Assembly: GCA_031289325.1 (NCBI GenBank)
Contig: JAITPS010000248.1
Location: forward strand, 1-11,119
DNA length: 11,119 bases
From: Candidatus Methanovirga meridionalis
Lineage (GTDB): Archaea; Methanobacteriota; Methanobacteria; Methanobacteriales; Methanobacteriaceae
Direction of reading: 5' to 3'
Shown: piece by piece, positions 1 to 11,119 of the stretch
How the letters are laid out: each line of letters starts with the position of its first letter
Position numbering within the stretch: position 1 is the first letter of the stretch
Translations under genes and position numbers: made by a program
The notes under the pieces: generated by a model
The model's database searches: none
Seen by the model: the letters and a program-made list of their open reading frames with translations, nothing else
Told to the model about the DNA's origin: nothing

Positions 1-120
1 TATTTAAAAAATTGTTATTTAAAAAATTGTTATTTAAAAAATTGTTATTTAAAAAATTGTTATTTAAAAAATTGTTATTTAAAAAATTGTTATTTAAAAA
101 ATTGTTATTTAAAAAATTAA
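1..120. repeat. Perfect tandem array of a 15-bp unit TATTTAAAAAATTGT, 8 copies, truncated by the left window edge
   Basis: Direct reading shows units at 1-15, 16-30 ... 91-105 are identical. The last unit, 106-120, ends in AA instead of GT. Confidence 0.95.
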
Positions 121-121
121 C

Positions 122-420
122 TTATAGTCATTATGGAAAAGTTCTTAAATTTTGAATAATAACTTTTTTTATTAAATTATTTAATTTTAAATATTATTTC
201 ATGAAACTCTATAATTTTTAATTTATAATAATATAAATATATTTTAATTAATATAAGTAATTCTTAATTAATATAACTAATTCTTAATTAATATAACAAA
301 TTTTAAATTAATATAACTAATTCTTAATTAATATAACAAATTTTAAATTAATATATTTAATAATATTTATTTTTAAAAAAGTTGTTTATTAAGGACTTTA
401 TCAAAACCATTATAATTACA
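122..420 (+). repeat. Copy A of a dispersed ~300-bp intergenic element. It comprises a 5' block (122-197), an internal ~20-bp-period array (244-359) and a 3' block (356-420). Imperfect terminal inverted repeats are AAAGTTCTTAA (138-148) and TTAAGGACTTT (389-399).
   Basis: Copy A is colinear with the copy at 10626-10885 and shares ordered blocks with it. It matches the reverse complement of 5957-6316. Its 5' block also matches 4296-4372. Confidence 0.8.
244..359. repeat. Tandem ~20-bp units (TTAATTAATATAACTAATTC / CAAATTTTAAATTAATATAA), including a 40-bp higher-order unit present twice (270-309 and 310-349)
   Basis: Read directly from the sequence. Confidence 0.85.
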
Positions 421-640
421 AACATTTTTTACATAAATTAAAAGAAAACACTTGAATGGCATCGATAATATAGTCTAAATTCTCATGGTTAAAACCAAAT
501 TTCAAATCTTTGAAAACCATGTCTTTTACACAGCCCAAATATCTACCCAAATATCTAATTAAATTTTATTTATAGTGTAATTAAACATCTGTGTGTAATT
601 TAAAAAAATTTCATTATTGAAATTGTTCAATTTAGACTCT

Positions 641-677
641 CAAATAAAAAAAAAAAGGAAAAAAAGAAAATATATAT
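641..677 (-). terminator. Oligo-T tract immediately downstream of the hdrB stop (minus strand reads ATTTTCTTTTTTTCCTTTTTTTTTTTTATTTG)
   Basis: Archaeal transcription terminates at oligo-dT runs. There is a run of at least 11 T within 35 nt of the stop codon. Confidence 0.6.
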
Positions 678-1583
678 TTACTCTGTCGCATTAGCATCTA
701 ATTCTGCAACTAATTTAGCGAGAACAGGATCAGAGCTTATTTGATGAGCATCTAAAGTTAAATCAGTTTTGTTTAATCCCATAGCTAATCCATAAAGTTG
801 AGCTAAATGGAAAACAGGAATTTGATAATTAGTACCATACTTCTGATTAACTTCAACTTGACCTACATCAAATTGCATGTGACAGAATGGGCAAATTTCA
901 ACTATAGCATCAACATCAGCATCGGTCATGTTGTCAAGTTTTTCTTTGGTGATACTTAAAGTAACATCTTTATCTCTTGCTCTTAATCCACCACCAGCAC
1001 CACAGCACAACATTTTATCTTTATATGGAATAGACCTTGCACCAGTGACTTCAACAAGTTCATCTAAAATTTGTGGTCTTTCAGCATTGTCAATACCAAT
1101 ATCTGCAGTTGGTTTTAAAAAGTGACAACCATAGTGAACAGCAACATCTAAGTTTAATTGCTTGTCTACTAATTCATTTAATTTATCAAGACCAACTGAG
1201 TTATATAAAACTTCAGCAAAATGTCTAACATTAATAGAACCTTTATATTCTTTGCCAACTTCAGATAAAACTTCATTTACCTCATCTTTAAGTGTTGCAT
1301 CATGTTGTAGTTCTTCATTAGCTTCAAATAATGAGCCAAAACACCCATTACATTCAGTCATTAAATCAGAACCCATTTCTTCGGCAATAGCTATGTTACG
1401 AGCAGCTATTGAAACCCATGTTTTTTTATCAAATGAACCAAAAACACCAGGAGCAGGACAACAGGATGCTCCGTGCATATCATTAAGGGCGAAATCTAAT
1501 TTATCAAATAAAATTCTTGTTGCTTTTTCAATTCCAGGATATCGGTTGTTCATAATACAACCTAAGAAGTATGCAATTTCCAT
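678..1583 (-). CDS. hdrB: Heterodisulfide reductase subunit B (HdrB), CCG-domain protein
   Basis: 301-aa ORF. The N-terminus MEIAYFLGCIMNNRYPGIEKATR and the motifs ASCCPAPGVFGSFD and LCCGAGGG match the two cysteine-rich CCG domains of HdrB. The SD AAGGAGAT lies 5–6 nt upstream of the ATG (minus strand, about 1586-1596). The gene starts 18 bp downstream of the hdrC stop, giving hdrCB operon order as in Methanothermobacter. Confidence 0.9.
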   Translation of the reverse strand: MEIAYFLGCIMNNRYPGIEKATRILFDKLDFALNDMHGASCCPAPGVFGSFDKKTWVSIAARNIAIAEEMGSDLMTECNGCFGSLFEANEELQHDATLKDEVNEVLSEVGKEYKGSINVRHFAEVLYNSVGLDKLNELVDKQLNLDVAVHYGCHFLKPTADIGIDNAERPQILDELVEVTGARSIPYKDKMLCCGAGGGLRARDKDVTLSITKEKLDNMTDADVDAIVEICPFCHMQFDVGQVEVNQKYGTNYQIPVFHLAQLYGLAMGLNKTDLTLDAHQISSDPVLAKLVAELDANATE

Positions 1584-1601
1584 TTTAAAATCTCCTTAAA
1601 A

Positions 1602-2681
1602 TTATTCAACTAATTCATTGGTTTCCATATTGTAACCAATTAATTTATCAAATCCAGTTGCTTTACAAATAGTTCTTATATCTTCTAATGCTTTTGCTTC
1701 GGAATGAGTTGTTGGTGGTAATTCAGATAATCCAACCTTTTTCCTTAAAATTTTAGTAGCATCATTGATTGGTACGCCATGTCCAGTTTTTATAACAAAT
1801 GAACCAGTTGCTCTATGAGCAGGAGCCATAAATCCAGCTTTAGCAGCTTCATTACGTGCTAATTTAATAATTTCAACTATTTTAACACTTCTTGGGCATC
1901 TTTCTTGGCAAGTATAACATGTTGTACACATCCATAATGCTGGATCAGAGATTACATCATCTTTTAATCCCATTAAACACTTTCGAACAATTTGTCTTAC
2001 TTTATAAGGAGTTCTTCTTCCTGAAGGACATCCTCCACTACATGTACCACATTGAAAACAATGTTCTACAGTATCAATACCTGCATCAACAAACAATTGT
2101 GTAAACTCTTTGTTAACATTTTCAGGTCTAATTACCAAATTTTCTTCTAATAAAGTCATATTATCTCCTTTCTTATTTTTTTCTTCTGAAACTTTAGTTT
2201 TTTCTTCAACAGCTACAGCAACTTCATCTTTAGAACCTTTTTCTTTTTTTAAAGTTGGTTTGTCATTTTTAACTTTAATTTTTTCATTTTCAACAGTTTT
2301 CACTTCAGATATTTCTTCTTTTTCATTAGTTTCCTTTTTAGCAGGTCTCTCAATTGAAGCATTTTTCTCTTTAGTGGATCCTGTTTCAACAGGCTTTTCT
2401 TTTTCAACAGTTTCCTGTTTTTTAGGCTCTGTTTTAACGGATTCTTCAGATTTAGGTGTCGTAGAATTTTTAGTAACAGAAGAATCAGTTTTCTCTTCTG
2501 TAATTTCATCTGTGGAAGAACGTTTGTCTTTAGAATCAATATCTTCTTTAACAGGTGCTTCCTTAACAGATTCATTCTCAATTACATCCTGATTATCTCC
2601 TTTAAAGAGAGATTTTAGATATTTAATTAAAGACATTTTTATCACACCTTTGAAATTAATGGTATACACCCTTAATTTCAT
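1602..2681 (-). CDS. hdrC: Heterodisulfide reductase subunit C (HdrC; 2x[4Fe-4S] ferredoxin domain) with an unusual ~160–175-aa K/E/T-rich N-terminal extension. Alternative starts are at 2636 (Met16, SD GGTGTGAT) and 2159 (Met175 MTLLEEN, the canonical HdrC N-terminus, strong SD AGGAGAT).
   Basis: The C-terminal 185 aa (MTLLEENLVIRPENVNKEF...CFQCGTCSGGCP...CTTCYTCQERCP) has the canonical HdrC length and both CxxCxxCxxxCP cluster motifs. The frame stays open a further 522 nt upstream through non-repetitive Lys/Glu/Thr/Ser/Pro-rich sequence. A TATA-like TTTATATA at 2705-2712 (minus strand) would place a transcription start near 2681, so the longest form may be translated from a leaderless mRNA. 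Confidence 0.8.
   Translation of the reverse strand: MKLRVYTINFKGVIKMSLIKYLKSLFKGDNQDVIENESVKEAPVKEDIDSKDKRSSTDEITEEKTDSSVTKNSTTPKSEESVKTEPKKQETVEKEKPVETGSTKEKNASIERPAKKETNEKEEISEVKTVENEKIKVKNDKPTLKKEKGSKDEVAVAVEEKTKVSEEKNKKGDNMTLLEENLVIRPENVNKEFTQLFVDAGIDTVEHCFQCGTCSGGCPSGRRTPYKVRQIVRKCLMGLKDDVISDPALWMCTTCYTCQERCPRSVKIVEIIKLARNEAAKAGFMAPAHRATGSFVIKTGHGVPINDATKILRKKVGLSELPPTTHSEAKALEDIRTICKATGFDKLIGYNMETNELVE
2160..2172 (-). promoter_or_regulatory. Strong internal Shine-Dalgarno (GAAAGGAGATAAT) immediately 5' of the canonical HdrC Met codon at 2157-2159
   Basis: The minus strand reads GAAAGGAGATAATATGACTTTATTAGAA. The AGGAGAT sits at optimal spacing from the ATG. Confidence 0.6.
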
Positions 2682-2704
2682 ACTAATTATTTTTGAATGT
2701 GTAG

Positions 2705-2712
2705 TATATAAA
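2705..2712 (-). promoter_or_regulatory. TATA-box-like TTTATATA upstream of hdrC, with an abutting inverted repeat GGTTAC-N16-GTAACC at 2713-2740
   Basis: This is the best consensus archaeal TATA match in the 190-bp U32-hdrC spacer. It lies about 27 bp upstream of the first in-frame ATG of hdrC (2681). The inverted repeat occupies the BRE/upstream-activator position. Confidence 0.45.
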
Positions 2713-2827
2713 GGTTACTAAAATTTTGATTTCTGTAACCCTTTAGGCACCACATAAATATATCTTAAAATAGCTTTATATTTTAATTTAATCCATTATT
2801 TTAATAAAATATTAAATTATTAGATAA

Positions 2828-4033
2828 TTAAATTTTTATAAGCTTATAAACATGATCATTTTTTCTTATTTTATTTTTAATAGCTATTGCTACATTTTTA
2901 CCTTTCTCTACTTTTTTAATAGCTTTGCCATTAATTTCCATTGATTCAACTATCTGATTAATAGAACCCGTTGTATTTCCTTGAATTATTATTTCATCAA
3001 ACAAATTTAAATCATCCCATAACTGAATTTCAGCAACTTTAATTTTGTTATAATAATTAACAACTTTTCCAATATCTTTTTTCCTATAAGTTGCATCGTT
3101 ATCCTTACTAATTTCATAAGGTTGATTAAAATAGAATCCAGTATCAAAACCACGATGGAAAACTTTTCTTAAATCTAATAACCATTGAGGATTGAATTTA
3201 TATTTTTTTTGATTTACATTATATTGGTCAATAGCCTCTCTAAAAACTTTTGTTGAAGTTGCTACATAATCTGGAGATCTTCCTCTACCTTCAATTTTAA
3301 ATCCATCAACACCACTTTCCATAAGTTCAGGAATATGTTCTATCATGGTTAAATCTTTTGCAGATAAAAAATTTGTTTTATATGTTTCATCATAAGATTT
3401 TGCAAGAATTATTTCTTCTTTAATCCCATTTTCTATAGTTAATTTCCATTCTTTCCTGCATGGTTGTAAACATTTCCCACAGTTTGCACTTTCACCATAT
3501 AACCCATAACTTAAAAAACATCTTCCAGATATTCCCATACACATTGCACCATGAACAAAAACCTCAGTTTCAATAGGTGAGTTTTTAGCTATTTCTTTGA
3601 TCTCACTAAATGATAATTCTCTTGAAAGAATGACTCGACTAACACCAAGCTTTTTTAAAATTTTAAGTGTTTTAGTATTAGTCACATTACTTTGAACACT
3701 TAAATGAACATTAAAATGATTTTCAACACTAATATCAACCATTCCTAAATCACTCACTATAAGAGCATCAACTTCATAGCTATTAATCTCTGGTAAAATA
3801 GTTTTAAACTCTTCAATATCTTTATCTTTCATCACAGTATTAGTGCATAAATATAATTTTTTATCATGCTCATGTGAAACATTTACAAGATTTTTAAGAT
3901 CTTTAACATTGAAATTACTTGCATTGTTTCTCATGTTTGATCCATCAAGCCCAACATAAATAGAATCAGCACCATTTTTCAATGCACTATTAAATGAAGA
4001 TAAGTTTCCAGCTGGAGCTAACAATTCAACCAT
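2828..4033 (-). CDS. Peptidase U32 family protein (collagenase-like YhbU/RlhA/TrhP family)
   Basis: 401-aa ORF. The N-terminus MVELLAPAGNLSSFNSALKNGADSIYVG matches the hallmark M-x-ELLAPAG...GADAVY start of U32 proteins. Conserved Cys residues (CMGISGRCF, CGKCLQPC) are present. The SD GGTG lies 7 nt upstream of the ATG. Confidence 0.85.
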   Translation of the reverse strand: MVELLAPAGNLSSFNSALKNGADSIYVGLDGSNMRNNASNFNVKDLKNLVNVSHEHDKKLYLCTNTVMKDKDIEEFKTILPEINSYEVDALIVSDLGMVDISVENHFNVHLSVQSNVTNTKTLKILKKLGVSRVILSRELSFSEIKEIAKNSPIETEVFVHGAMCMGISGRCFLSYGLYGESANCGKCLQPCRKEWKLTIENGIKEEIILAKSYDETYKTNFLSAKDLTMIEHIPELMESGVDGFKIEGRGRSPDYVATSTKVFREAIDQYNVNQKKYKFNPQWLLDLRKVFHRGFDTGFYFNQPYEISKDNDATYRKKDIGKVVNYYNKIKVAEIQLWDDLNLFDEIIIQGNTTGSINQIVESMEINGKAIKKVEKGKNVAIAIKNKIRKNDHVYKLIKI

Positions 4034-4200
4034 TAAAACACCTTTAAAATTTTAAGTTGGATTTAAACATTCCTTAGATTTAAACAGTTTCTATATAATA
4101 AATAAAAACAATCTATTTGTATAAAATAAATATTTAAAATAGATATTATAATAATTAATTCAAAACATTTAATTTAATTCATAAAATATTTAATTATAAT

Positions 4201-4271
4201 TCCAATTTTTTTATTAATTCTCCAATTTTTTTATTAATTCCATTTTTAAAAAATCAATTTTTAAAAAATCA
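4201..4271. repeat. Short tandem duplications: TCCAATTTTTTTATTAATTC x2 (4201-4240), then ATTTTTAAAAAATCA x2
   Basis: Read directly from the sequence. Confidence 0.8.
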
Positions 4272-4295
4272 TTATTATTTTAATTTAAAATTTTT

Positions 4296-4500
4296 AATAT
4301 ATGAGCATATGGGAAAGTTCCTAAATTTTAAAATGATAATTTTTTATTAAATTATTTAATTTTTAATATCATTTTATAAAATCTGCAATTTTAAATAATA
4401 TCTATTTTAAATTTTAAATTAATATCAATTTTAAATAATATAATAACATTTTGATTAATATAATATATCAAAAAATAATATCACAAAATAATATCACAAA
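4296..4500 (+). repeat. Copy B of the dispersed element. It has the 5' block (TATGAGCATATGGGAAAGTTCCTAAATTTTAAAATGATAATTTTTTATTAAATTATTTAATTTTTAATATC, 4296-4372) and the AATTTTAAATTAATAT array motif, but no recognisable 3' block.
   Basis: About 85% identity to 122-197 across ~75 bp, including the shared 27-mer TTATTAAATTATTTAATTTT(A/T)AATAT. It sits in the divergent U32/gap intergenic region, about 260 bp from either start codon. Confidence 0.75.
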
Positions 4501-4635
4501 ATTTATATACTTATATAAACTGATTTTATATTATGAGTTTTACTTTTCATGAAAATAAAAGCAAACTTAGATATTATTTATTCGATATTTTAAAAATTAT
4601 GTTTAAATTATATGAAATTTCAATGGAGATTTATA

Positions 4636-5652
4636 ATGAAAGCATCTGTAGCAATTAATGGATACGGTACAATTGGAAAAAGAGTAGCTGATGCAGTTTC
4701 AGCTCAAGATGATATGAAAATTATTGGTGTTAGCAAAACAAGACCAAATTATGAAGCTAAAATAGCTGTTGAGAAAGGATATGATTTATACATAGCTATT
4801 CCAGAGCGTGAAAAGTTATTTGATGAGGCTGGAATTGAAATAGCTGGAACAACTGATGAAATGATTGAAAAATCAGATATTGTTGTTGACTGTACACCTG
4901 GTAATGTTGGTCCTGAAAATCTTGAGAAATATAAAGCAAGCAATGTTAAGGCAATTTATCAAGGTGGAGAAAAACATACCCTTACAGGATTATCATTTAA
5001 TTCTATTGCAAACTATTCCGATTCTGTAGGAAAGGAATATACAAGAGTTGTATCCTGTAATACAACTGGTTTAGCTCGTAGTTTAACTCCTATTAGTAAA
5101 AACTGGGGAATTAAAAAAGTTAGAGCTGTTATGGTTCGTCGTGGTGGAGACCCTTATCAAGTTAACAAAGGACCTATTAATGGAATCGTTCCAAACCCAC
5201 CTAAAGTTCCTTCTCATCATGGTCCTGATCTTGAGACTGTATTGAATGGTGTAGATATCACAACAATGGCTTTATTAGTCCCAACTACTCTCATGCATCA
5301 ACATAATTTAATGGTTGAACTTGAAAATGATGCAAAAATTGATGATGTAATTGATGTATGGGAGAAAAGATCAAGAGTTCTTTTATTAAAAGCAGAAGAT
5401 GGTTTAACTTCAACTGCTGGATTCATGGAATATGCTAAAGAACTTGGAAGAAATAGAAATGATTTCTATGAAATTCCTATTTGGAGAGAATCAATTAATG
5501 TTGTAGATGGAGAATTATTCTACATGCAGGCAGTACACCAAGAATCCGATGTTGTTCCTGAAAATGTGGATGCTATAAGAGCATTATTAGAATTAGAAAC
5601 AGATGGTGAAAAATCTATAGCTAAAACCAATAAAGCTATGGGAATTTTATAA
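4636..5652 (+). CDS. gap: Glyceraldehyde-3-phosphate dehydrogenase, archaeal type II, phosphorylating
   Basis: The Rossmann motif [17 protein letters not shown] and the catalytic-Cys motif VVSCNTTGL are typical of archaeal GAPDH. The ORF in the track begins at 4612, but the ATG at 4636 has the SD GGAGAT 6 nt upstream and gives the canonical N-terminus MKASVAING. An oligo-T tract follows the stop. Confidence 0.9.
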
Positions 5653-5670
5653 TTTTTTCTTTTTTTTATA
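5653..5670 (+). terminator. Oligo-T tract TTTTTTCTTTTTTTTATA directly after the gap stop codon
   Basis: Archaeal oligo-dT terminator signal. Confidence 0.65.
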
Positions 5671-5956
5671 TATTAATTTTAGTTATATCAATTTTCAACT
5701 GATGAAGACATAATACTTTCTTTAATATTTATAGTTCCTCATTTTAAATCATTTTTAAGAACTTTATAAGATCAATACAGTACTAAAAAAAGATTTTTAC
5801 TTATAATGTTTCACATAACTAATGTATTTTATTATTACAAAAAATTATTACAAATTATTTTTTAAATATTAGTATTCATCGTTTAAATTTGATTTAAAGA
5901 AATAAAAATCATTTTTGATTGTATCTATTTAATTTGGATTTTGTAAAAGTAGTATA

Positions 5957-6316
5957 GTGGTTTTGATAAAGTTTTTAATAAATAACTTTTTTTTAAAATT
6001 AAATATTATTAAAAAAATTAAGTATTATTAAAAGATATTACTTAAAATTATTTTATATTACTTAAAACTATTTTATATTGCTTGAAATTATAGTAGTTTT
6101 GATAAAATTCTTAATAAATAATTTTTTTAAAATTAAATATTATTAAAATATATTTATTTAAAATTGATTATATTAATTAAAATAAGTGTATATTATTTAA
6201 AATTTAAAATTATTGTTTTTTATAAATTAATATTCAAAATTAATTAATTTAATAAAAAATTTATTATTATTCAAAAAAATTTATTATTCAAAATTTAAGA
6301 ACTTTTTCATGAATGA
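5957..6316 (-). repeat. Copy D of the dispersed element in inverted orientation. The reverse-complemented 3' block is at 5957-6015 and the reverse-complemented 5' block at 6228-6316. There are internal duplications: a second 3' block at 6088-6150 and 20-bp tandem units ATTACTTAAAATTATTTTAT at 6037-6089.
   Basis: 5957-6012 (GTGGTTTTGATAAAGTTTTTAATAAATAACTTTTTTTTAAAATTAAATATTATTAAAAA) matches the reverse complement of 356-410 at over 90%. 6285-6315 (TTCAAAATTTAAGAACTTTTTCATGAATGA) matches the reverse complement of 128-157 with only 2-3 mismatches. Confidence 0.8.
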
Positions 6317-6330
6317 ATATATTTTGCATT

Positions 6331-6430
6331 AATTAAAAATTATTTATATTAATTAAAAATTATTTATATTAATTAAAAATTATTTATATTAATTAAAAAT
6401 TATTTATATTAATTAAAAATTATTTATATT
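6331..6430. repeat. Perfect tandem array of a 20-bp unit AATTAAAAATTATTTATATT, 5 copies, with a degenerate sixth unit
   Basis: Read directly from the sequence. The array is flanked on the right (6440-6494) by a partial second inverted copy of the element 5' block (AATATTTAAAATTAATTAATTTAATAAAACAATTTT). Confidence 0.95.
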
Positions 6431-6556
6431 AATTAATATTTAAAATTATTGATTTTTATAAATTAATATTTAAAATTAATTAATTTAATAAAACAATTTT
6501 ATAGAACATTACATAAGTGATATTAAATTAATCATGAAGCATAGGTTTAAAGCTAG

Positions 6557-6598
6557 AAAGTCTTTGATTTTCTTTTATTTCTTAAAATCAAAAACTTT
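6557..6598 (+). other. Hairpin with 15-bp arms AAAGTCTTTGATTTT / AAAATCAAAAACTTT and a 12-nt loop. It has one C·A mismatch in the plus-strand transcript and would be a perfect stem with a U·G pair in the minus-strand transcript. T-tracts follow on the plus strand.
   Basis: Reverse-complement comparison of 6557-6571 against 6584-6598. The hairpin lies 110 bp upstream of the SPFH gene start. Confidence 0.5.
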
Positions 6599-6708
6599 AA
6601 GAATTTTAAATTAATTTTTTAGAGAAAATAATTTTAGATAGAATAAATAGCTTAAATAAATAGCTTAAATTAATAAATGACTTAAATTAAGATATAAAAG
6701 GTGATATA

Positions 6709-7674
6709 ATGGATCCAATAATAGTGATTATAGTATTTGTAATAGTAATTATCATTGCTGCAAGAGCATTAAATATTTTAAGACCTTATGAAAAGGGAGT
6801 TGTTGAAAGATTAGGTAAATATCAAAGGACTGTTGAAAGTGGTTTGACATTTGTAGTTCCTTTCATTGAAAAAATTAGAACTGTCGACCTTCGTGAACAA
6901 GTAGTCGATGTTCCACCTCAAGAAGTTATTACAAAAGATAATACTGTGGTTATTGTTGACTGTGTAATTTTCTATGAGGTTATAGACCCTTTTAATGCCG
7001 TTTATAATGTTGTTAACTTTTATCAAGCTATTACAAAATTAGCTCAAACTAATTTAAGAAATATTGTTGGTGATTTAGAACTTGACCAAACCCTAACATC
7101 AAGAGAAATGATCAATACTCATCTTCGCGATGTTCTTGATGAAGCCACTGATAAATGGGGAACTCGAGTTGTAAGAGTTGAAATTCAAAGAATTGAGCCT
7201 CCAAAAGATATTGTTGATGCAATGAGTAAGCAGATGAAAGCTGAAAGAATGAAACGAGCATCTATTTTAGAAGCAGAAGGGTATAAACAGTCTGAGATTA
7301 AAAGAGCTGAAGGGGATAAACAAGCAGCTATTCTTGAATCAGAAGGTCGAGCTGAAGCTATTAAAAAAGTAGCAGAAGCTAATAAATACAAAGAAATAGC
7401 CACTGCAGAAGGTGAAGCAAAAGCAAACCTATCTATTTACGAATCTATTCATAAAGGTAATCCTACGAACGAGTTAATAGCTATTAAATATTTAGAATCA
7501 CTTGAAAAAATAGCTGATGGTAATTCAACAAAAATATTCCTCCCAGCTGAACTTTCTGGAATTTTAGGCTCTGTTGGTACAATAGCAGATTTATTTAATA
7601 AAGAAGATTTTAGTAAAAAAATAGTAAATCCTGAAAATAAAGCAGAAAGAAATGAATCAAATGATAACAATTGA
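6709..7674 (+). CDS. SPFH/band-7 family membrane protein (stomatin/prohibitin-like)
   Basis: The N-terminus has a hydrophobic transmembrane segment IIVIIVFVIVIIIAARALNIL. A PHB/SPFH core follows (YEKGVVERLGKYQRTVESGLTFVVPF...ITKDNTVVIVDCVIFYEVIDP...). The tail is E/A/K-rich coiled-coil-like sequence (EAEGYKQSEIKRAEGDKQAAILESEGRAEAIKK). The SD GGTGAT precedes the ATG. Confidence 0.85.
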   Translation: MDPIIVIIVFVIVIIIAARALNILRPYEKGVVERLGKYQRTVESGLTFVVPFIEKIRTVDLREQVVDVPPQEVITKDNTVVIVDCVIFYEVIDPFNAVYNVVNFYQAITKLAQTNLRNIVGDLELDQTLTSREMINTHLRDVLDEATDKWGTRVVRVEIQRIEPPKDIVDAMSKQMKAERMKRASILEAEGYKQSEIKRAEGDKQAAILESEGRAEAIKKVAEANKYKEIATAEGEAKANLSIYESIHKGNPTNELIAIKYLESLEKIADGNSTKIFLPAELSGILGSVGTIADLFNKEDFSKKIVNPENKAERNESNDNN

Positions 7675-7785
7675 TTTCAATAATAACTCTCTTATCTATA
7701 ATTTAAACTAATCTTATTATTATAATTTAAGATTTATTTATTCTTTTATTATTAAAATATATTATTTAAAATATTAGGTGATTAA

Positions 7786-9024
7786 ATGAAAGGCATGATA
7801 TTAGTAATTGATGGTTTAGGAGATCGTCCAGTGGAAGAATTAAGTAATCAAACACCATTGCAAAAAGCTAAAACTCCAAACTTGGATAAAATGGCTGAAA
7901 ATGGAATTAATGGAATTATGGATTCTATAGCGCCTGGTATTCGTCCAGGTAGTGACACAGCCCATATAGCTATATTGGGTTATGATCCTTACACTGTTTA
8001 TACTGGTAGAGGTCCGTTTGAAGCATCTGGTGTTGGATTAGATATTAAAGCTGGAGATGTTGCTTTTAGATGTAATTTTTCTACTGTTAATGATGATTTC
8101 ATTGTTACGGATAGAAGAGCTGGAAGAATAAAGAAAGATACATCACCTCTCATTGAAAAACTAAATAAAATGACCATAGAAAGTTATGAAGATATTGAAA
8201 TAATATTTAAAGAATCAACTGGTCATAGAGCAGTTCTAGTTTTAAGAGGAGATGGTCTATCAGATGAAATATCTGATGGTGACCCAAAAATTGTAGGAAA
8301 ACCACCTAAAACAATTTATCCTACAAGTAATTCTCCTGATGCAGAAAAAACTGCTGATTTATTAAATAAAATTATTAAGGAATCTTATAAAATTCTTAAA
8401 AATCATCCATTAAATTTAAATAGGATTAAGAATAATGAACCCCCTGCTAACATTATAATTCCACGTGGTGTTGGTCTTGTTCCTGAAGTTGAAGAACTTA
8501 ATAAAAAGTATGGGATAAATTCTGCTTGCATTGCTGAAACTGGACTTATAATGGGAATTGCAAGATTTGCTGGGATGGATATTATTGAAGTTGAAGGTTC
8601 AACAGGCAGTGTAGATACAAACTTAGATAATTTTATAGATACTATTCTTAACACTGTAAACAATACCAACCATGACTTTCTATTAGTCAATATTAAGGGA
8701 GCAGATGAGTCAGGTCATGATGGTAATGCTAAAGAAAAAATGGAATTTATTGAAAAGATAGATGATGTAGTATTTAGTAAGATATCACAACTTCAAGATA
8801 TTGTTACAATTGTAACAGCTGACCACTCTACTCCAATCACTGTTAAAGATCATAGTGCAGATCCTGTTCCTATTCTTATATATGGAGAAGGTGTAAGAGT
8901 GGATGATGTTAAAAGATTCAATGAAATTGATTCTGTTAAAGGAGGGCTTTTAAGACTTAAAGGTTCTGATTTAATGAACATTCTTATGGATTTAATAGAC
9001 AATACCCATAAATTTGGTGCTTAA
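7786..9024 (+). CDS. apgM: 2,3-bisphosphoglycerate-independent phosphoglycerate mutase, archaeal form (ApgM)
   Basis: 412 aa. The N-terminus [12 protein letters not shown] and the internal motifs ([30 protein letters not shown]) match the archaeal iPGM metalloenzyme family. The SD AGGTGAT precedes the ATG. Confidence 0.85.
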
Positions 9025-9068
9025 AAATATTTAAAATATATCTAAATTTATATTAAATTGGTGAATTA

Positions 9069-10424
9069 ATGACCCATGAAAAACTTTTTGGAACTTCAGG
9101 TATTAGAGCTAAAATTGGAGATGTGATAAATGGAGAATTCGCTTTAAACATAGGTCGTGCTATAGCCACATACTTAGGTGGTGAGGGAAATGTTATAGTT
9201 GGTTATGATACCAGAACCAGCAACCAACTTCTTGAACATGGTATCACTGCGGGTTTAATTGAAAGAGGATGTAATGTTATTAAATTAGGCATGGTTCCAA
9301 CACCACTATCTGGATATGCTACATATAAACTTAAAGCAGATTCAGGAATAATGATAACGGCATCACATAATCCTTCCCCCTACAATGGAATTAAAATTTG
9401 GGATAAAAATGGAATGGCATACACTCAAGGAAAAGAAAAAGAAATTGAAAAAATTTATTTCTCAAAAAATTTTCAAGAATTAAAATGGGATAGAATTGGA
9501 AAAATATATGAAAACAAAATTATTCAAGAGGATTATATTAATAAACTATTAAATATAGTTAATATAAAAACAGGATTAAAGGTTGTAATCGATCCAGCAT
9601 CAGGAGCCGCATCATATTTATCCCCTTTGATTTTTAAACAGGCAGGTTGTGAAGTAATAACTTTAAACTCTCAAATAGATGGATTTTTCCCTGGCAGAAA
9701 TCCAGAACCAACTGAAGCTAACCTACAAGATCTAAAAAAAGCTGTTGTTGCTACAGATGCAGACATTGGAATAGCACATGATGGAGATGGAGATAGAATG
9801 ATTGCTGTAGATGATAAAGGGCGAGTATCTGACTTTGATAAACTTCTATCCATCATCTCAAAAAAATATGCTAAAAAGGGCACTATTATAACAACATTCG
9901 ATGCTGGAATGTGTGTAGATGATGTAGTTGAATCAGCTGGTGGGAAAGTTATACATACAAAAGTAGGAGATGTTTCAGTTGCTGAAGCTATTATAATGGA
10001 AAATGCAAGTTTTGGAGGAGAACCTTCTGGAACATGGATTCATCCAGAATTTTGTATGTGTCCAGATGGAATACTTTCTGGATTAAAAATTGCAGAAATA
10101 GTATCTCACGAAGGAAAATTGTCTGATTTATTAGATGCATTACCAAACTACCATAATATCCATGAAAAAGTTTTAGCAAATAAAGAAGAAAAAATATTTG
10201 TAATGAAAAGTCTTAAAAAAGATATTAAGAATGTTTTTACTAATATAAAAAATATAAATACTCTTGATGGAATTAGAGTAGAATTTAATGATAGTTGGGT
10301 TTTAATAAGACCTTCTGGAACAGAAGACTATATAAGAATAACCTTAGAAGGAAAAACTTTAGAAAGAGCAAATGAAATTAAAAAAACTTCAATTAATCTA
10401 ATTAAAAGCTATTTAAATAAATAA
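9069..10424 (+). CDS. Phosphohexomutase family protein, most likely phosphoglucosamine mutase (GlmM) or PMM/PGM
   Basis: 451 aa. It has an FGTSGIRAK N-terminus, the active-site serine loop ITASHNPSPYNGIKI, the metal-binding DADIGIAHDGDGDRM and the sugar-binding loop GEPSGT. These are the diagnostic alpha-D-phosphohexomutase motifs. The gene lies 44 bp downstream of apgM and has the SD GGTGA, so co-transcription with apgM is likely. Confidence 0.8.
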   Translation: MTHEKLFGTSGIRAKIGDVINGEFALNIGRAIATYLGGEGNVIVGYDTRTSNQLLEHGITAGLIERGCNVIKLGMVPTPLSGYATYKLKADSGIMITASHNPSPYNGIKIWDKNGMAYTQGKEKEIEKIYFSKNFQELKWDRIGKIYENKIIQEDYINKLLNIVNIKTGLKVVIDPASGAASYLSPLIFKQAGCEVITLNSQIDGFFPGRNPEPTEANLQDLKKAVVATDADIGIAHDGDGDRMIAVDDKGRVSDFDKLLSIISKKYAKKGTIITTFDAGMCVDDVVESAGGKVIHTKVGDVSVAEAIIMENASFGGEPSGTWIHPEFCMCPDGILSGLKIAEIVSHEGKLSDLLDALPNYHNIHEKVLANKEEKIFVMKSLKKDIKNVFTNIKNINTLDGIRVEFNDSWVLIRPSGTEDYIRITLEGKTLERANEIKKTSINLIKSYLNK

Positions 10425-10625
10425 ATAGATAAATAGATAATAAATTGTTGATTACGAAATGAATTTAGTTAATTAAATTGGTAGTGCAAAATTAGGATGG
10501 ATTTTTACAATTGAAAAATTAAAAACAAAAAAGTTTAATGACATGTGTATGATCTAAATTTTGTGATCTAATTTTTTCTATTAAACCCCCAAATTATGGA
10601 TTTTGAACTTCATCCTCTTTTTATA

Positions 10626-10885
10626 GTGCCATTATTATATGGTTATTATGAATAATTTTTTAAATTTTGAAGTATAAATTTTTTTATTTTTTTATTAAAT
10701 TATTTAATTTTAAATATTAATATATAAAAATCCATAATTTTAAATTTTAATTAATATTAATATATTTTAATTAATATAAACAATTTTAAATTAATATCTT
10801 TTAATAATACTTATTTTTAATAATACTTATTTTTAAAAAAAGTTATTTATTAAGAACTTTAACAAAACCACCGTAATATAACTCA
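10626..10885 (+). repeat. Copy C of the dispersed element: 5' block 10626-10720, array motifs 10741-10835, and 3' block with TTAAGAACTTT at 10850-10860
   Basis: Colinear with 122-420. The reverse complement of its 3' motif is an exact match to AAAGTTCTTAA at 138-148. Confidence 0.8.
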
Positions 10886-10998
10886 TTTATATTATTATAA
10901 ATAAAGTACAATTTTAAATAATAAAAGAAAATTAAAATCTTAAATTATAAGAGTTATTATTGCAAATAAATTTTTATATTATTTTAAAAACTTTAAAA

Positions 10999-11119
10999 TT
11001 GAAATTAAATGATTAGTAATTGAAATTAAATGATTAGTAATTGAAATTAAATGATTAATAATTAAAATTAAATGATTAGTAATTGAAATTAAATGATTAG
11101 TAATTGAAATTAAATGATT
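10999..11119. repeat. Tandem array of a 21-bp unit TTGAAATTAAATGATTAGTAA, at least 5.8 copies, truncated by the right window edge
   Basis: Units at 10999, 11020, 11041, 11062, 11083 and 11104. Units 3 and 4 each carry a single substitution. Confidence 0.95.

Follow-up and report, generated by a model that had tools for sequence, protein, structure and literature searches.

HdrC of Methanobacteriales carries a conserved helix-and-spacer extension and a retained internal start: analysis of the hdrC locus of Candidatus Methanovirga meridionalis

The hdrC gene of Candidatus Methanovirga meridionalis was analysed in an 11,119-nucleotide (nt) stretch of DNA (GenBank assembly GCA_031289325.1, contig JAITPS010000248.1, positions 1 to 11,119 of the forward strand), referred to here as the window. 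The gene lies on the minus strand and encodes the 185-amino-acid (aa) iron-sulfur subunit HdrC preceded, in the same frame, by a long N-terminal extension. Comparison of orthologous sequences indicates that the extension is a feature of the order Methanobacteriales and no oddity of the window, and that it is almost certainly translated. Two in-frame starts, each led by a Shine-Dalgarno (SD) sequence at functional spacing, are present: AGGTGTGAT 8 nt before the ATG at 2636 and AAAGGAGAT 5 nt before the ATG at 2159. Judging from their conservation, both starts are probably used. The features that carry the argument are as follows.

1602–2681, minus strand: open reading frame (ORF) of 359 aa from the ORF list, the count running from a non-conserved ATG at 2681
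1602–2636, minus strand: coding sequence of the long hdrC (344 aa and a stop codon), beginning at the conserved MSLIKYLK..., with an identical annotation in NCBI (P0001)
1602–2159, minus strand: canonical HdrC core, the last 185 codons, with the two [4Fe-4S] motifs CFQCGTCSGGCP and CTTCYTCQERCP
2641–2649, minus strand: SD AGGTGTGAT of the long isoform, GGTG 8 nt 5' of ATG 2636, duplex energy −7.6 kcal/mol
2163–2171, minus strand: internal SD AAAGGAGAT, read K-G-D in the long frame, GGAG 5 nt 5' of the internal ATG, duplex energy −7.1 kcal/mol
2157–2159, minus strand: internal ATG (Met160 in the 344-aa protein, Met175 in the 359-aa ORF) and ancestral start codon for the 185-aa HdrC

The locus survey covered Methanobrevibacter and genera recently split off from it, with 80 loci having an intact upstream region (an 81st, ending at a contig edge, was excluded). 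The extension is present in 77 of the 80, and its frame contains no stop in any of the 77, compared with means of 7 and 30 stops in the other sense frames. In the window those two sense frames hold 6 and 35 stops, and only one antisense frame is nearly open (1 stop), which does not agree with the earlier description of the window, made from its sequence alone (the sequence-only reading), of both other frames across 2160–2600 as unusually open. The same antisense frame is stop-free in 31 of the 77 orthologous loci. The ratio of nonsynonymous to synonymous substitution rates (dN/dS), estimated from 16 close pairs, ranges from 0.10 to 1.06 in the linker with a median of about 0.45, compared to at most 0.17 in the core; 15 of these pairs give a linker value below 1. 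Length differences between species leave the frame intact throughout, and the A/T bias at third codon positions of the extension equals that of the core. By these measures the extension is coding sequence under weak constraint, as is typical of disordered regions. The sequence-only reading had taken it to be protein-coding, and the dN/dS values, mostly below 1, and the uninterrupted frame of the long-form loci bear this out.

The same data dispose of the possibility of a purine-rich leader that is not translated and stays open in this frame as an artefact of composition. The region is indeed A-rich (47% A), and the nearly open antisense frame also speaks for such an artefact. However, the absence of stops in all 77 loci is confined to the extension frame, the N-terminal peptide and its SD are kept, and neither the dN/dS values nor the core-like third-position bias fits untranslated DNA. 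With no frameshifts or stops in the long-form orthologues, this explanation is effectively refuted, and we give it next to no chance of being correct. Two further ORFs overlap the extension, at 2110–2592 on the plus strand (160 aa), which results from the nearly open antisense frame, and at 2300–2581 on the minus strand (93 aa). Both are shadow ORFs arising from the A-rich, T-poor linker and not genes.

The long protein very likely starts at the ATG at 2636 (344 aa) and not at 2681. When the window is aligned with the 80 genome loci, ATG 2636 falls on a start that is kept in every long-form locus, and the identical protein in NCBI is annotated with 344 aa from MSLIKYLK; given this start, the extension is 159 aa long. 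SD strength was measured as the energy of the duplex with the 3' end of 16S rRNA. The motif AGGTGTG or a one-base variant stands 7–8 nt 5' of the first ATG in the listed orthologues, with a mean duplex energy of −8.0 kcal/mol, and deviates to AGGATGTG or AGGGCGTG in a few of them. The first SD had been described as weaker than the internal one, but the measured energies are −7.6 vs −7.1 kcal/mol, and the first SD is found in nearly every listed orthologue. The ATG at 2681, in comparison with L001–L006, is in frame and open in the window only. Its counterpart in L001, the closest relative (91% identical), is 44 nt upstream and hence out of frame, and in L002–L006 the counterpart lies out of frame or runs into a stop. 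Leaderless initiation at 2681, proposed by the sequence-only reading, is rejected, as neither frame nor openness is kept even in the nearest relatives.

The internal ATG matches the first residue of the 185-aa chain from M. marburgensis (query residue 176 aligns to chain residue 2) and is present in all 86 loci examined. The AGGAGAT noted earlier just before this ATG is located at 2163–2169; the SD of hdrB uses the same AGGAGAT, and the internal SD is the strongest in its own linker (−7.1 compared to a background of −1.6 kcal/mol). The junction nucleotides are kept as RGAGNGAT-AAT-ATG-ACT, with variants AAGAGAGATAAT ATG ACT, AAAGGAGATAAT ATG ACT and GAGAGCGATAAT ATG ACT, whereas the residue at −3 from the internal Met is variable (G, R, S, E, K, N or C). 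The junction of Methanobacterium and Methanothermobacter holds the invariant GAAAGGAGTG, read as E-R-S, with duplex energies of −7.4 to −9.1 kcal/mol that equal or beat the first start in 4 of 5 loci. Three loci that lack the extension (L047, L060 and L066) have the same junction sequence in an untranslated leader with upstream stops, where it is the only ribosome-binding site of hdrC. Both start contexts are kept in the 77 loci of the Methanobrevibacter group and in 5 of Methanobacterium and Methanothermobacter, the internal SD being weaker in some clades. The earlier suggestion that an internal SD and ATG could yield a canonical short isoform is thus strengthened, with both starts conserved across the order and the internal one serving as the sole start in three lineages without the extension. 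We infer that both starts are used within one cell. As a separate observation, the 12-mer AAAGGAGATAAT occurs a second time at codons 11–15 (F-K-G-D-N; window 2595–2603, minus strand, onward), with an out-of-frame ATG-TAA pair 7 nt later; this second copy is probably coincidental, arising from the codons of the conserved K-G-D-N and D-V-I.

Within the extension, only three elements are conserved: the SD-led helix, the spacer (as a variable segment), and the junction SD with its ATG. The first two occupy the following positions in the window.

2598–2636, minus strand: N-terminal helix, codons 1–13, MSLIKYLKSLFKG, cationic and amphipathic judging from the sequence logo, the hydrophobic moment and residues 3–10 of an AlphaFold2 (AF2) model; candidate membrane or partner anchor
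2160–2597, minus strand: disordered spacer, codons 14–159, rich in K, E, S and T, fast-evolving by dN/dS and variable in length, with an AF2 confidence score (pLDDT) of about 28

The first 13 residues follow the consensus M-S-[IVL]-[ILF]-[NDK]-R-L-K-S-L-F-[KG]-G and are kept from Methanothermobacter (MSVLKRLKEMLMG) to Methanobrevibacter, although the linkers that follow have no detectable similarity to one another; an alignment of 18 sequences shows no change at M1, S2, L7 or K8. The hydrophobic moment is 0.69 in the window and 0.57 on average in the genus, compared with 99th percentiles of 0.53 among 11-mers of the linker and 0.66 among those of the core. Residues L3, I4, L7, L10 and F11 share one arc of 120 degrees, K5, K8 and K12 being on the opposite side, and the net charge is +3 in the window, +2 in the median and, in the M. 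ruminantium-type clade, 0 to +1. The AF2 model is poor (mean pLDDT 40, from the 18-sequence alignment) and was used for the distinction between helix and disorder only; it has a helix at residues 3–10 and no secondary structure at residues 11–165 (pLDDT about 28). The amphipathic N-terminus followed by a flexible linker, as proposed by the sequence-only reading, is supported by the high moment and by this model. All 77 matches to the N-terminal motif among 4,429 Met-starts are HdrC, a count with little bearing on the proteome since the fetched loci cover hdrC neighbourhoods only.

The extension is 102–252 aa long in the 77 loci, with a spacer of 89–239 residues. In the window it consists of 21% K, 18% E, 10% S and 9% T with a net charge of −3, has no Pfam or NCBIfam match, and contains no tandem repeats in its linker, in line with its earlier description as non-repetitive and rich in K, E, T and S; a linker built from repeats is ruled out for the window. 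Some relatives do have duplicated segments. Recent duplications (EDDVKLAVEENKV(T/A)EEK twice, SEEVKEKLAEAEEKVEEK twice, AEVSTKKDEVPDKVEEVK twice) were found among P0005 and P0007, which are relatives of the window, P0384 (Methanothermobacter sp. MT-2) and P0288 (Methanobacterium alkalithermotolerans), and indicate that length variation arises partly via in-frame tandem duplication. The net charge of the spacer ranges from +6 to −82 depending on the clade: in the termite-gut clade of the window it is a near-neutral K/E polyampholyte, and in the M. ruminantium-type clade it is strongly acidic. Clustering by phase separation, another role suggested for the extension, is not specifically supported, as the clades have no charge pattern in common. 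About 80% of the linkers in the Methanobrevibacter group contain a [VQ]-T-S-S or S-S island at extension residues ~40–50 (window ~2490–2520, '...DKRSSTDEITEEK...'), often followed by ...(I/V)VSGTK(T/S)(T/S)...; the island is absent from Methanothermobacter and may represent another short motif or a site of modification.

The sequence-only reading regarded 185 aa as the canonical length in Methanobacteriales and the extension as local. Alignment of orthologues reverses this picture: Methanobrevibacter, Methanobacterium and Methanothermobacter as a rule have long ORFs, which are annotated as long in RefSeq. The best 120 homologues are mostly 295–374 aa, including those of M. ruminantium, M. filiformis and M. 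curvatus. A second search, seeded by a Methanobacterium-like long form, returned long proteins with the same N-terminal motif. HdrC measures 271–327 aa in Methanobacterium and Methanothermobacter together and 282–325 aa in Methanobacterium, with 322 aa in M. thermautotrophicus and 317 aa in M. marburgensis (MSVLKRLKEMLMGEKKEE...SERSDIMTLLQREEN; locus taken from the complete genome CP001710). In a distant search of 1.84 billion representatives the module was limited to the closest clusters, and distant HdrC-like proteins were mostly ~160–200 aa. The motif was absent from the distant HdrC representatives inspected; the longer candidates from outside Methanobacteriales had unrelated N-termini or were tandem HdrC-like domains, and were rejected as carriers of the extension.

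The loci without an extension, L047 (~4022), L060 (~4016) and L066 (~4016), include that of Methanobrevibacter sp. DSM 116169. In a tree of the core sequences they lie inside long-form clades, the sister locus of L066 having a 252-aa extension and that of L060 plus L047 one of 194 aa. L066 retains a decayed first SD and start (GATTATCCAAAGTGTAATTTTCATATCAATTTTAGAT, compared with GATTATCCAAGGTGTGTTTTCAATGTCTATTTTAGAT in relatives). The nested positions and this relic indicate at least two secondary losses.

The best reading of these data, to which we would give about an even chance, combines two starts with a tethering role for the long isoform. Ribosomes would start at ATG 2636 and make a 344-aa protein consisting of a 13-residue cationic helix, a spacer of ~145 residues and the 185-aa iron-sulfur subunit; they would also start at the ancestral SD and ATG in the junction and make the 185-aa HdrC, the form found in solved structures. 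The helix would most likely act as a reversible membrane-binding anchor, and the spacer as a long leash that keeps part of the HdrABC complexes near the membrane. The membrane tether is the more tentative component, to be held at somewhat less than an even chance, and it is by analogy only that the helix may bind lipid.

The closest comparison is SepF of Methanobrevibacter smithii, which consists of a helix at residues 1–12 (MGFTDALKRSLGF), a flexible linker and a core, and whose helix peptide binds vesicles with a dissociation constant of 43 uM (PMC8178401). The two proteins share the helix-linker-core plan and come from the same genus, and the SepF pattern M-x-h-x-D-x-L-K-x-x-h is found also in Methanobrevibacter clades whose HdrC has Asp5, for example L040. 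The hydrophobic moment of the SepF helix, 0.50, is below that of the HdrC helix in the window. However, the cores are not homologous, the HdrC linker is 2–6 times longer, HdrC is a redox subunit and SepF an anchor for FtsZ, and lipid binding by HdrC is only proposed from the likeness. The targeting helices of MinD and FtsA, and the N-terminal amphipathic segment of FtsY with its acidic A domain, are further cases in which a terminal helix beside a flexible, often acidic region gives reversible membrane association. They differ from HdrC in family, function and terminus, the MinD and FtsA helices being C-terminal. The C-terminus of E. coli MinD, ...GFLKRLFGG, resembles MSLIKRLKSLFGG of relatives of the window, which we regard as a lead only. 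As in targeting of the SepF/MinD/FtsA type, the HdrC helix is terminal and separated from the core by a linker, and it has the corresponding helical periodicity (moment 0.69 compared to 0.53 for the 99th percentile of linker 11-mers).

Alternative in-frame starts that give N-terminal proteoforms have been described in a bacterial survey (bioRxiv 10.1101/520783) and by archaeal Ribo-seq (PMC7261190). Those genes share with hdrC the two SD-led in-frame starts and the common C-terminal domain; the case for hdrC differs from them in depending on order-wide conservation rather than on initiation mapping. No such dual-start case for HdrC was reported in the literature searched.

The best-characterised relative is HdrC of the M. 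marburgensis HdrABC-MvhAGD complex (PDB 8rvu and others; UniProt Q50754). Its core is orthologous to that in the window, with two [4Fe-4S] motifs and an hdrC-hdrB operon common to both, and its gene has the same kind of extension (P0376, 317 aa). The protein as characterised and deposited is the short form only, whereas the ORF in the window is the long form. The enzyme purified by Hedderich et al. in 1994 reportedly had subunits of 80, 36 and 21 kDa, and the entries in PDB and UniProt (PE=1, 21 kDa) hold the 185-aa form beginning at the internal Met. The proteomics database of a study of M. marburgensis (PMC12350162) had the short HdrC sequence only, and extracts in published M. marburgensis work were ultracentrifugation supernatants; a long isoform, especially a membrane-bound one, would go unseen under these circumstances. 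No extension peptide was found in the supplements of that study, which is uninformative given the short-only database. A limited search of the structural and proteomic literature found no mention of an HdrC extension. As the long ORFs are already in RefSeq, the sequence itself is not new; what appears to be undescribed, within that limited search, is the conserved helix-tether module, the retained second start, and the mismatch with the biochemically studied form.

Several points weigh against the two-start tether. Among the experiments within reach, none demonstrates the long protein or the use of both starts, and HdrABC-MvhADG is regarded as cytoplasmic (PMC5861303). The losses indicate that the extension is dispensable and not essential. 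The internal SD is weak in rumen and gut clades of Methanobrevibacter, at −3.3 to −4.3 kcal/mol or about the best 20% of linker positions, and conservation of the junction could be partly inherited or reflect a need at the protein level. In the M. ruminantium-type clade a helix of net charge 0 to +1 is followed by a linker of −46 to −60, which disfavours anionic membranes; the conserved polar face (S2, R6, K8, S9) is more in keeping with a specific protein partner than with lipid binding of a generic kind; and the AF2 model is of low confidence (mean pLDDT 40).

That polar face speaks for a serious rival to lipid binding, in which the helix is a short motif that docks on a specific partner protein, be it in a membrane complex (Eha/Ehb or Mtr, for example) or in a cytosolic assembly, and the spacer is its leash. 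Conservation of S2 (75 of 77 loci), R6 (58 of 77), K8 (73 of 77) and S9 (55 of 77) exceeds what amphipathicity alone would explain, the helix is weakly cationic in the M. ruminantium-type clade, and the charge of the linker is unconstrained. However, no partner is at hand, the occurrence of the motif on HdrC alone (among the 4,429 Met-starts from hdrC neighbourhoods) gives no sign of a shared docking code, and the pattern and moment match or exceed those of the validated lipid-binding helix from the same genus. We regard docking as the less probable role, at well under an even chance. A different scenario retains the long form alone and treats the internal SD and ATG as a relic, Met160 being kept as part of the core N-terminus M-T-L-L. 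It agrees with the invariant M-[TS]-L-L block, with the weak internal SD of several Methanobrevibacter clades and with the preference for GAT and AAT codons in an AT-rich genome, owing to which the constancy of these codons is weak evidence. It does not explain why 12–15 nt before the ATG are kept across the order in an otherwise hypervariable linker, why, when the extension was lost (at least twice independently), the internal site was immediately enough, or why the characterised M. marburgensis subunit is short, and we consider it unlikely.

The short M. marburgensis subunit also speaks for another proposal, that only the long protein is made, its extension serving as a propeptide or assembly handle until a protease cuts at the junction to leave the 185-aa subunit. 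Purified and deposited HdrC of that species has 185 aa compared with an ORF of 317 aa, and the junction is kept at the protein level within each group, as ERS-x-x-M in Methanobacterium and Methanothermobacter and as [KE]-x-D-[NKT]-M in Methanobrevibacter. Yet the junction peptide differs between the groups, and both versions read as an SD at the right spacing; the residue at −3 varies where the purine-rich codon pattern is kept; the same nucleotides form an untranslated ribosome-binding site in lineages without the extension; and we know of no protease or cleavage motif for HdrC. Processing is the least probable of these three explanations, and we hold it to be quite unlikely.

In its broadest form, the two-start tether would mean that throughout Methanobacteriales part of the electron-bifurcating Hdr-Mvh(-Fmd) complex is leashed to the cytoplasmic membrane by long HdrC, through a SepF-like helix and a disordered tether of 100–250 residues. 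The ratio of long to short protein would be set by the two starts and the structured leader described below, and the tethered pool would have been missed through ultracentrifugation and databases holding only the 185-aa form. We offer this as a speculative extension that is more apt to be wrong than right by a considerable degree. In hydrogenotrophic methanogenesis, HdrABC is the central enzyme for energy coupling and is treated as soluble and cytoplasmic, and the HdrC module spans an order that contains the main biochemical models as well as the methanogens that dominate in gut and rumen. Should the long isoform be made, a single subunit would come in two versions that differ in localisation or partners, and the site of heterodisulfide reduction relative to the membrane-bound Mtr and Eha/Ehb would become a concrete question.

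The comparison also exposes a gap in annotation, the M. marburgensis gene being listed with 185 aa in UniProt and PDB and with 317 aa in RefSeq, and hdrC being annotated as short in some metagenome-assembled genomes (MAGs). In NCBI, hdrC has 185 aa in some MAGs (P0124, P0306); JGI gives 276 aa, and 285 aa is also annotated (cf. P0272/P0273), depending on the pipeline. The full ORF in the MAG gene of the P0124/P0306 type begins with MSMLQRLKKMFTG behind the SD AAGGTGTG. Two proteins, P0122 (282 aa) and P0125 (298 aa), have Methanobrevibacter-type cores with different N-termini, in which hydrophobic transmembrane-like segments replace the helix and linker; they come from short ENA contigs of ~1.9 kb and could be either chimeras produced in assembly or true variants. 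Among distant HdrC relatives, P0135 (240 aa) and P0136 (263 aa) have, one, a ribbon-helix-helix-like N-terminus and, the other, a long lysine-rich C-terminal tail. Both are unrelated to the module described here, and they show that add-on or disordered ends on HdrC-like proteins are not unique to Methanobacteriales.

Upstream of the first start, three further features were found.

2705–2720, minus strand: promoter TAGTAACCTTTATATA with transcription factor B recognition element (BRE) and TATA box, kept in all aligned loci from Methanothermobacter to Methanobrevibacter
2651–2680, minus strand: 5' leader hairpin GAAAUUAA...UUAAUUUC, closing just 5' of the first SD, with ATG 2679–2681 at its 5' edge
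2734–2754, minus strand: degenerate copy of an operator-like palindrome, consensus GTGTAACC-N5-GGTTACAC, directly 5' of the BRE, with 3 mismatches

The TATA-like element reported earlier at 2705–2712 is confirmed there (TTTATATA). Typical archaeal spacing between the TATA box and the transcription start site would place the latter near 2680–2684, giving hdrC a leader of ~45 nt rather than a leaderless transcript. The leader hairpin of the window has a minimum free energy of −9.8 kcal/mol (z = −4.3). When the leaders of L001–L085 were folded one by one, the 3' arm of the hairpin ended at most 3 nt from the first SD in 63 of 70 distinct sequences. The arms vary by clade yet remain complementary (GGAC/GUCC, GGAU/AUCC and AGAU/AUCU, with GAAAUUAA/UUAAUUUC in the window). 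RNAalifold gave no consensus for the 5' leaders as a whole, owing to alignment noise, and no structured RNA family in Rfam matched in the window. The hairpin could stabilise the mRNA or tune the use of the first start.

The palindrome GTGTAACC-N5-GGTTACAC lies ~10 nt 5' of the hdrC BRE/TATA from Methanothermobacter to Methanobrevibacter, and in the window its left half is degenerate. The exact form GTAACC-N5-GGTTAC occurs once per locus and always 5' of hdrC in 13 loci; copies in relatives are located at 3495–3511 in L015, 3894–3910 in L047, 1218–1234 in L081 and 2391–2407 in L085, among others. It is probably a transcription-factor site.

hdrC and hdrB lie together on the minus strand of the window, 3' of a peptidase-U32 gene.

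678–1583, minus strand: hdrB, with CCG domains, co-oriented with and 18 nt 3' of hdrC, with its own SD AAGGAGAT

The CCG domain of hdrB was identified by family search with E = 6e-39. The open frame 1602–2681 of the sequence-only reading is present, its upstream part in frame and without a stop, and its last 185 codons are HdrC as stated there. The product matches the TIGR03290 equivalog with 230.1 bits at residues 190–333 (cutoff 160), and four Pfam families of the Fer4 type (Fer4_8, Fer4_9, Fer4_17 and Fer4_10) match above their cutoffs at residues 205–266 of the 359-aa ORF. ORF residues 176–357 align with residues 2–184 of the 185-aa M. marburgensis chain 8rvu_c (E = 8.3e-90), and CFQCGTCSGGCP and CTTCYTCQERCP are invariant in the 18-sequence alignment. 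All the marks of HdrC that were tested, namely a TIGR03290 score above the cutoff, two [4Fe-4S] motifs, an hdrB neighbour and similarity to a characterised structure, are thus present in the gene.

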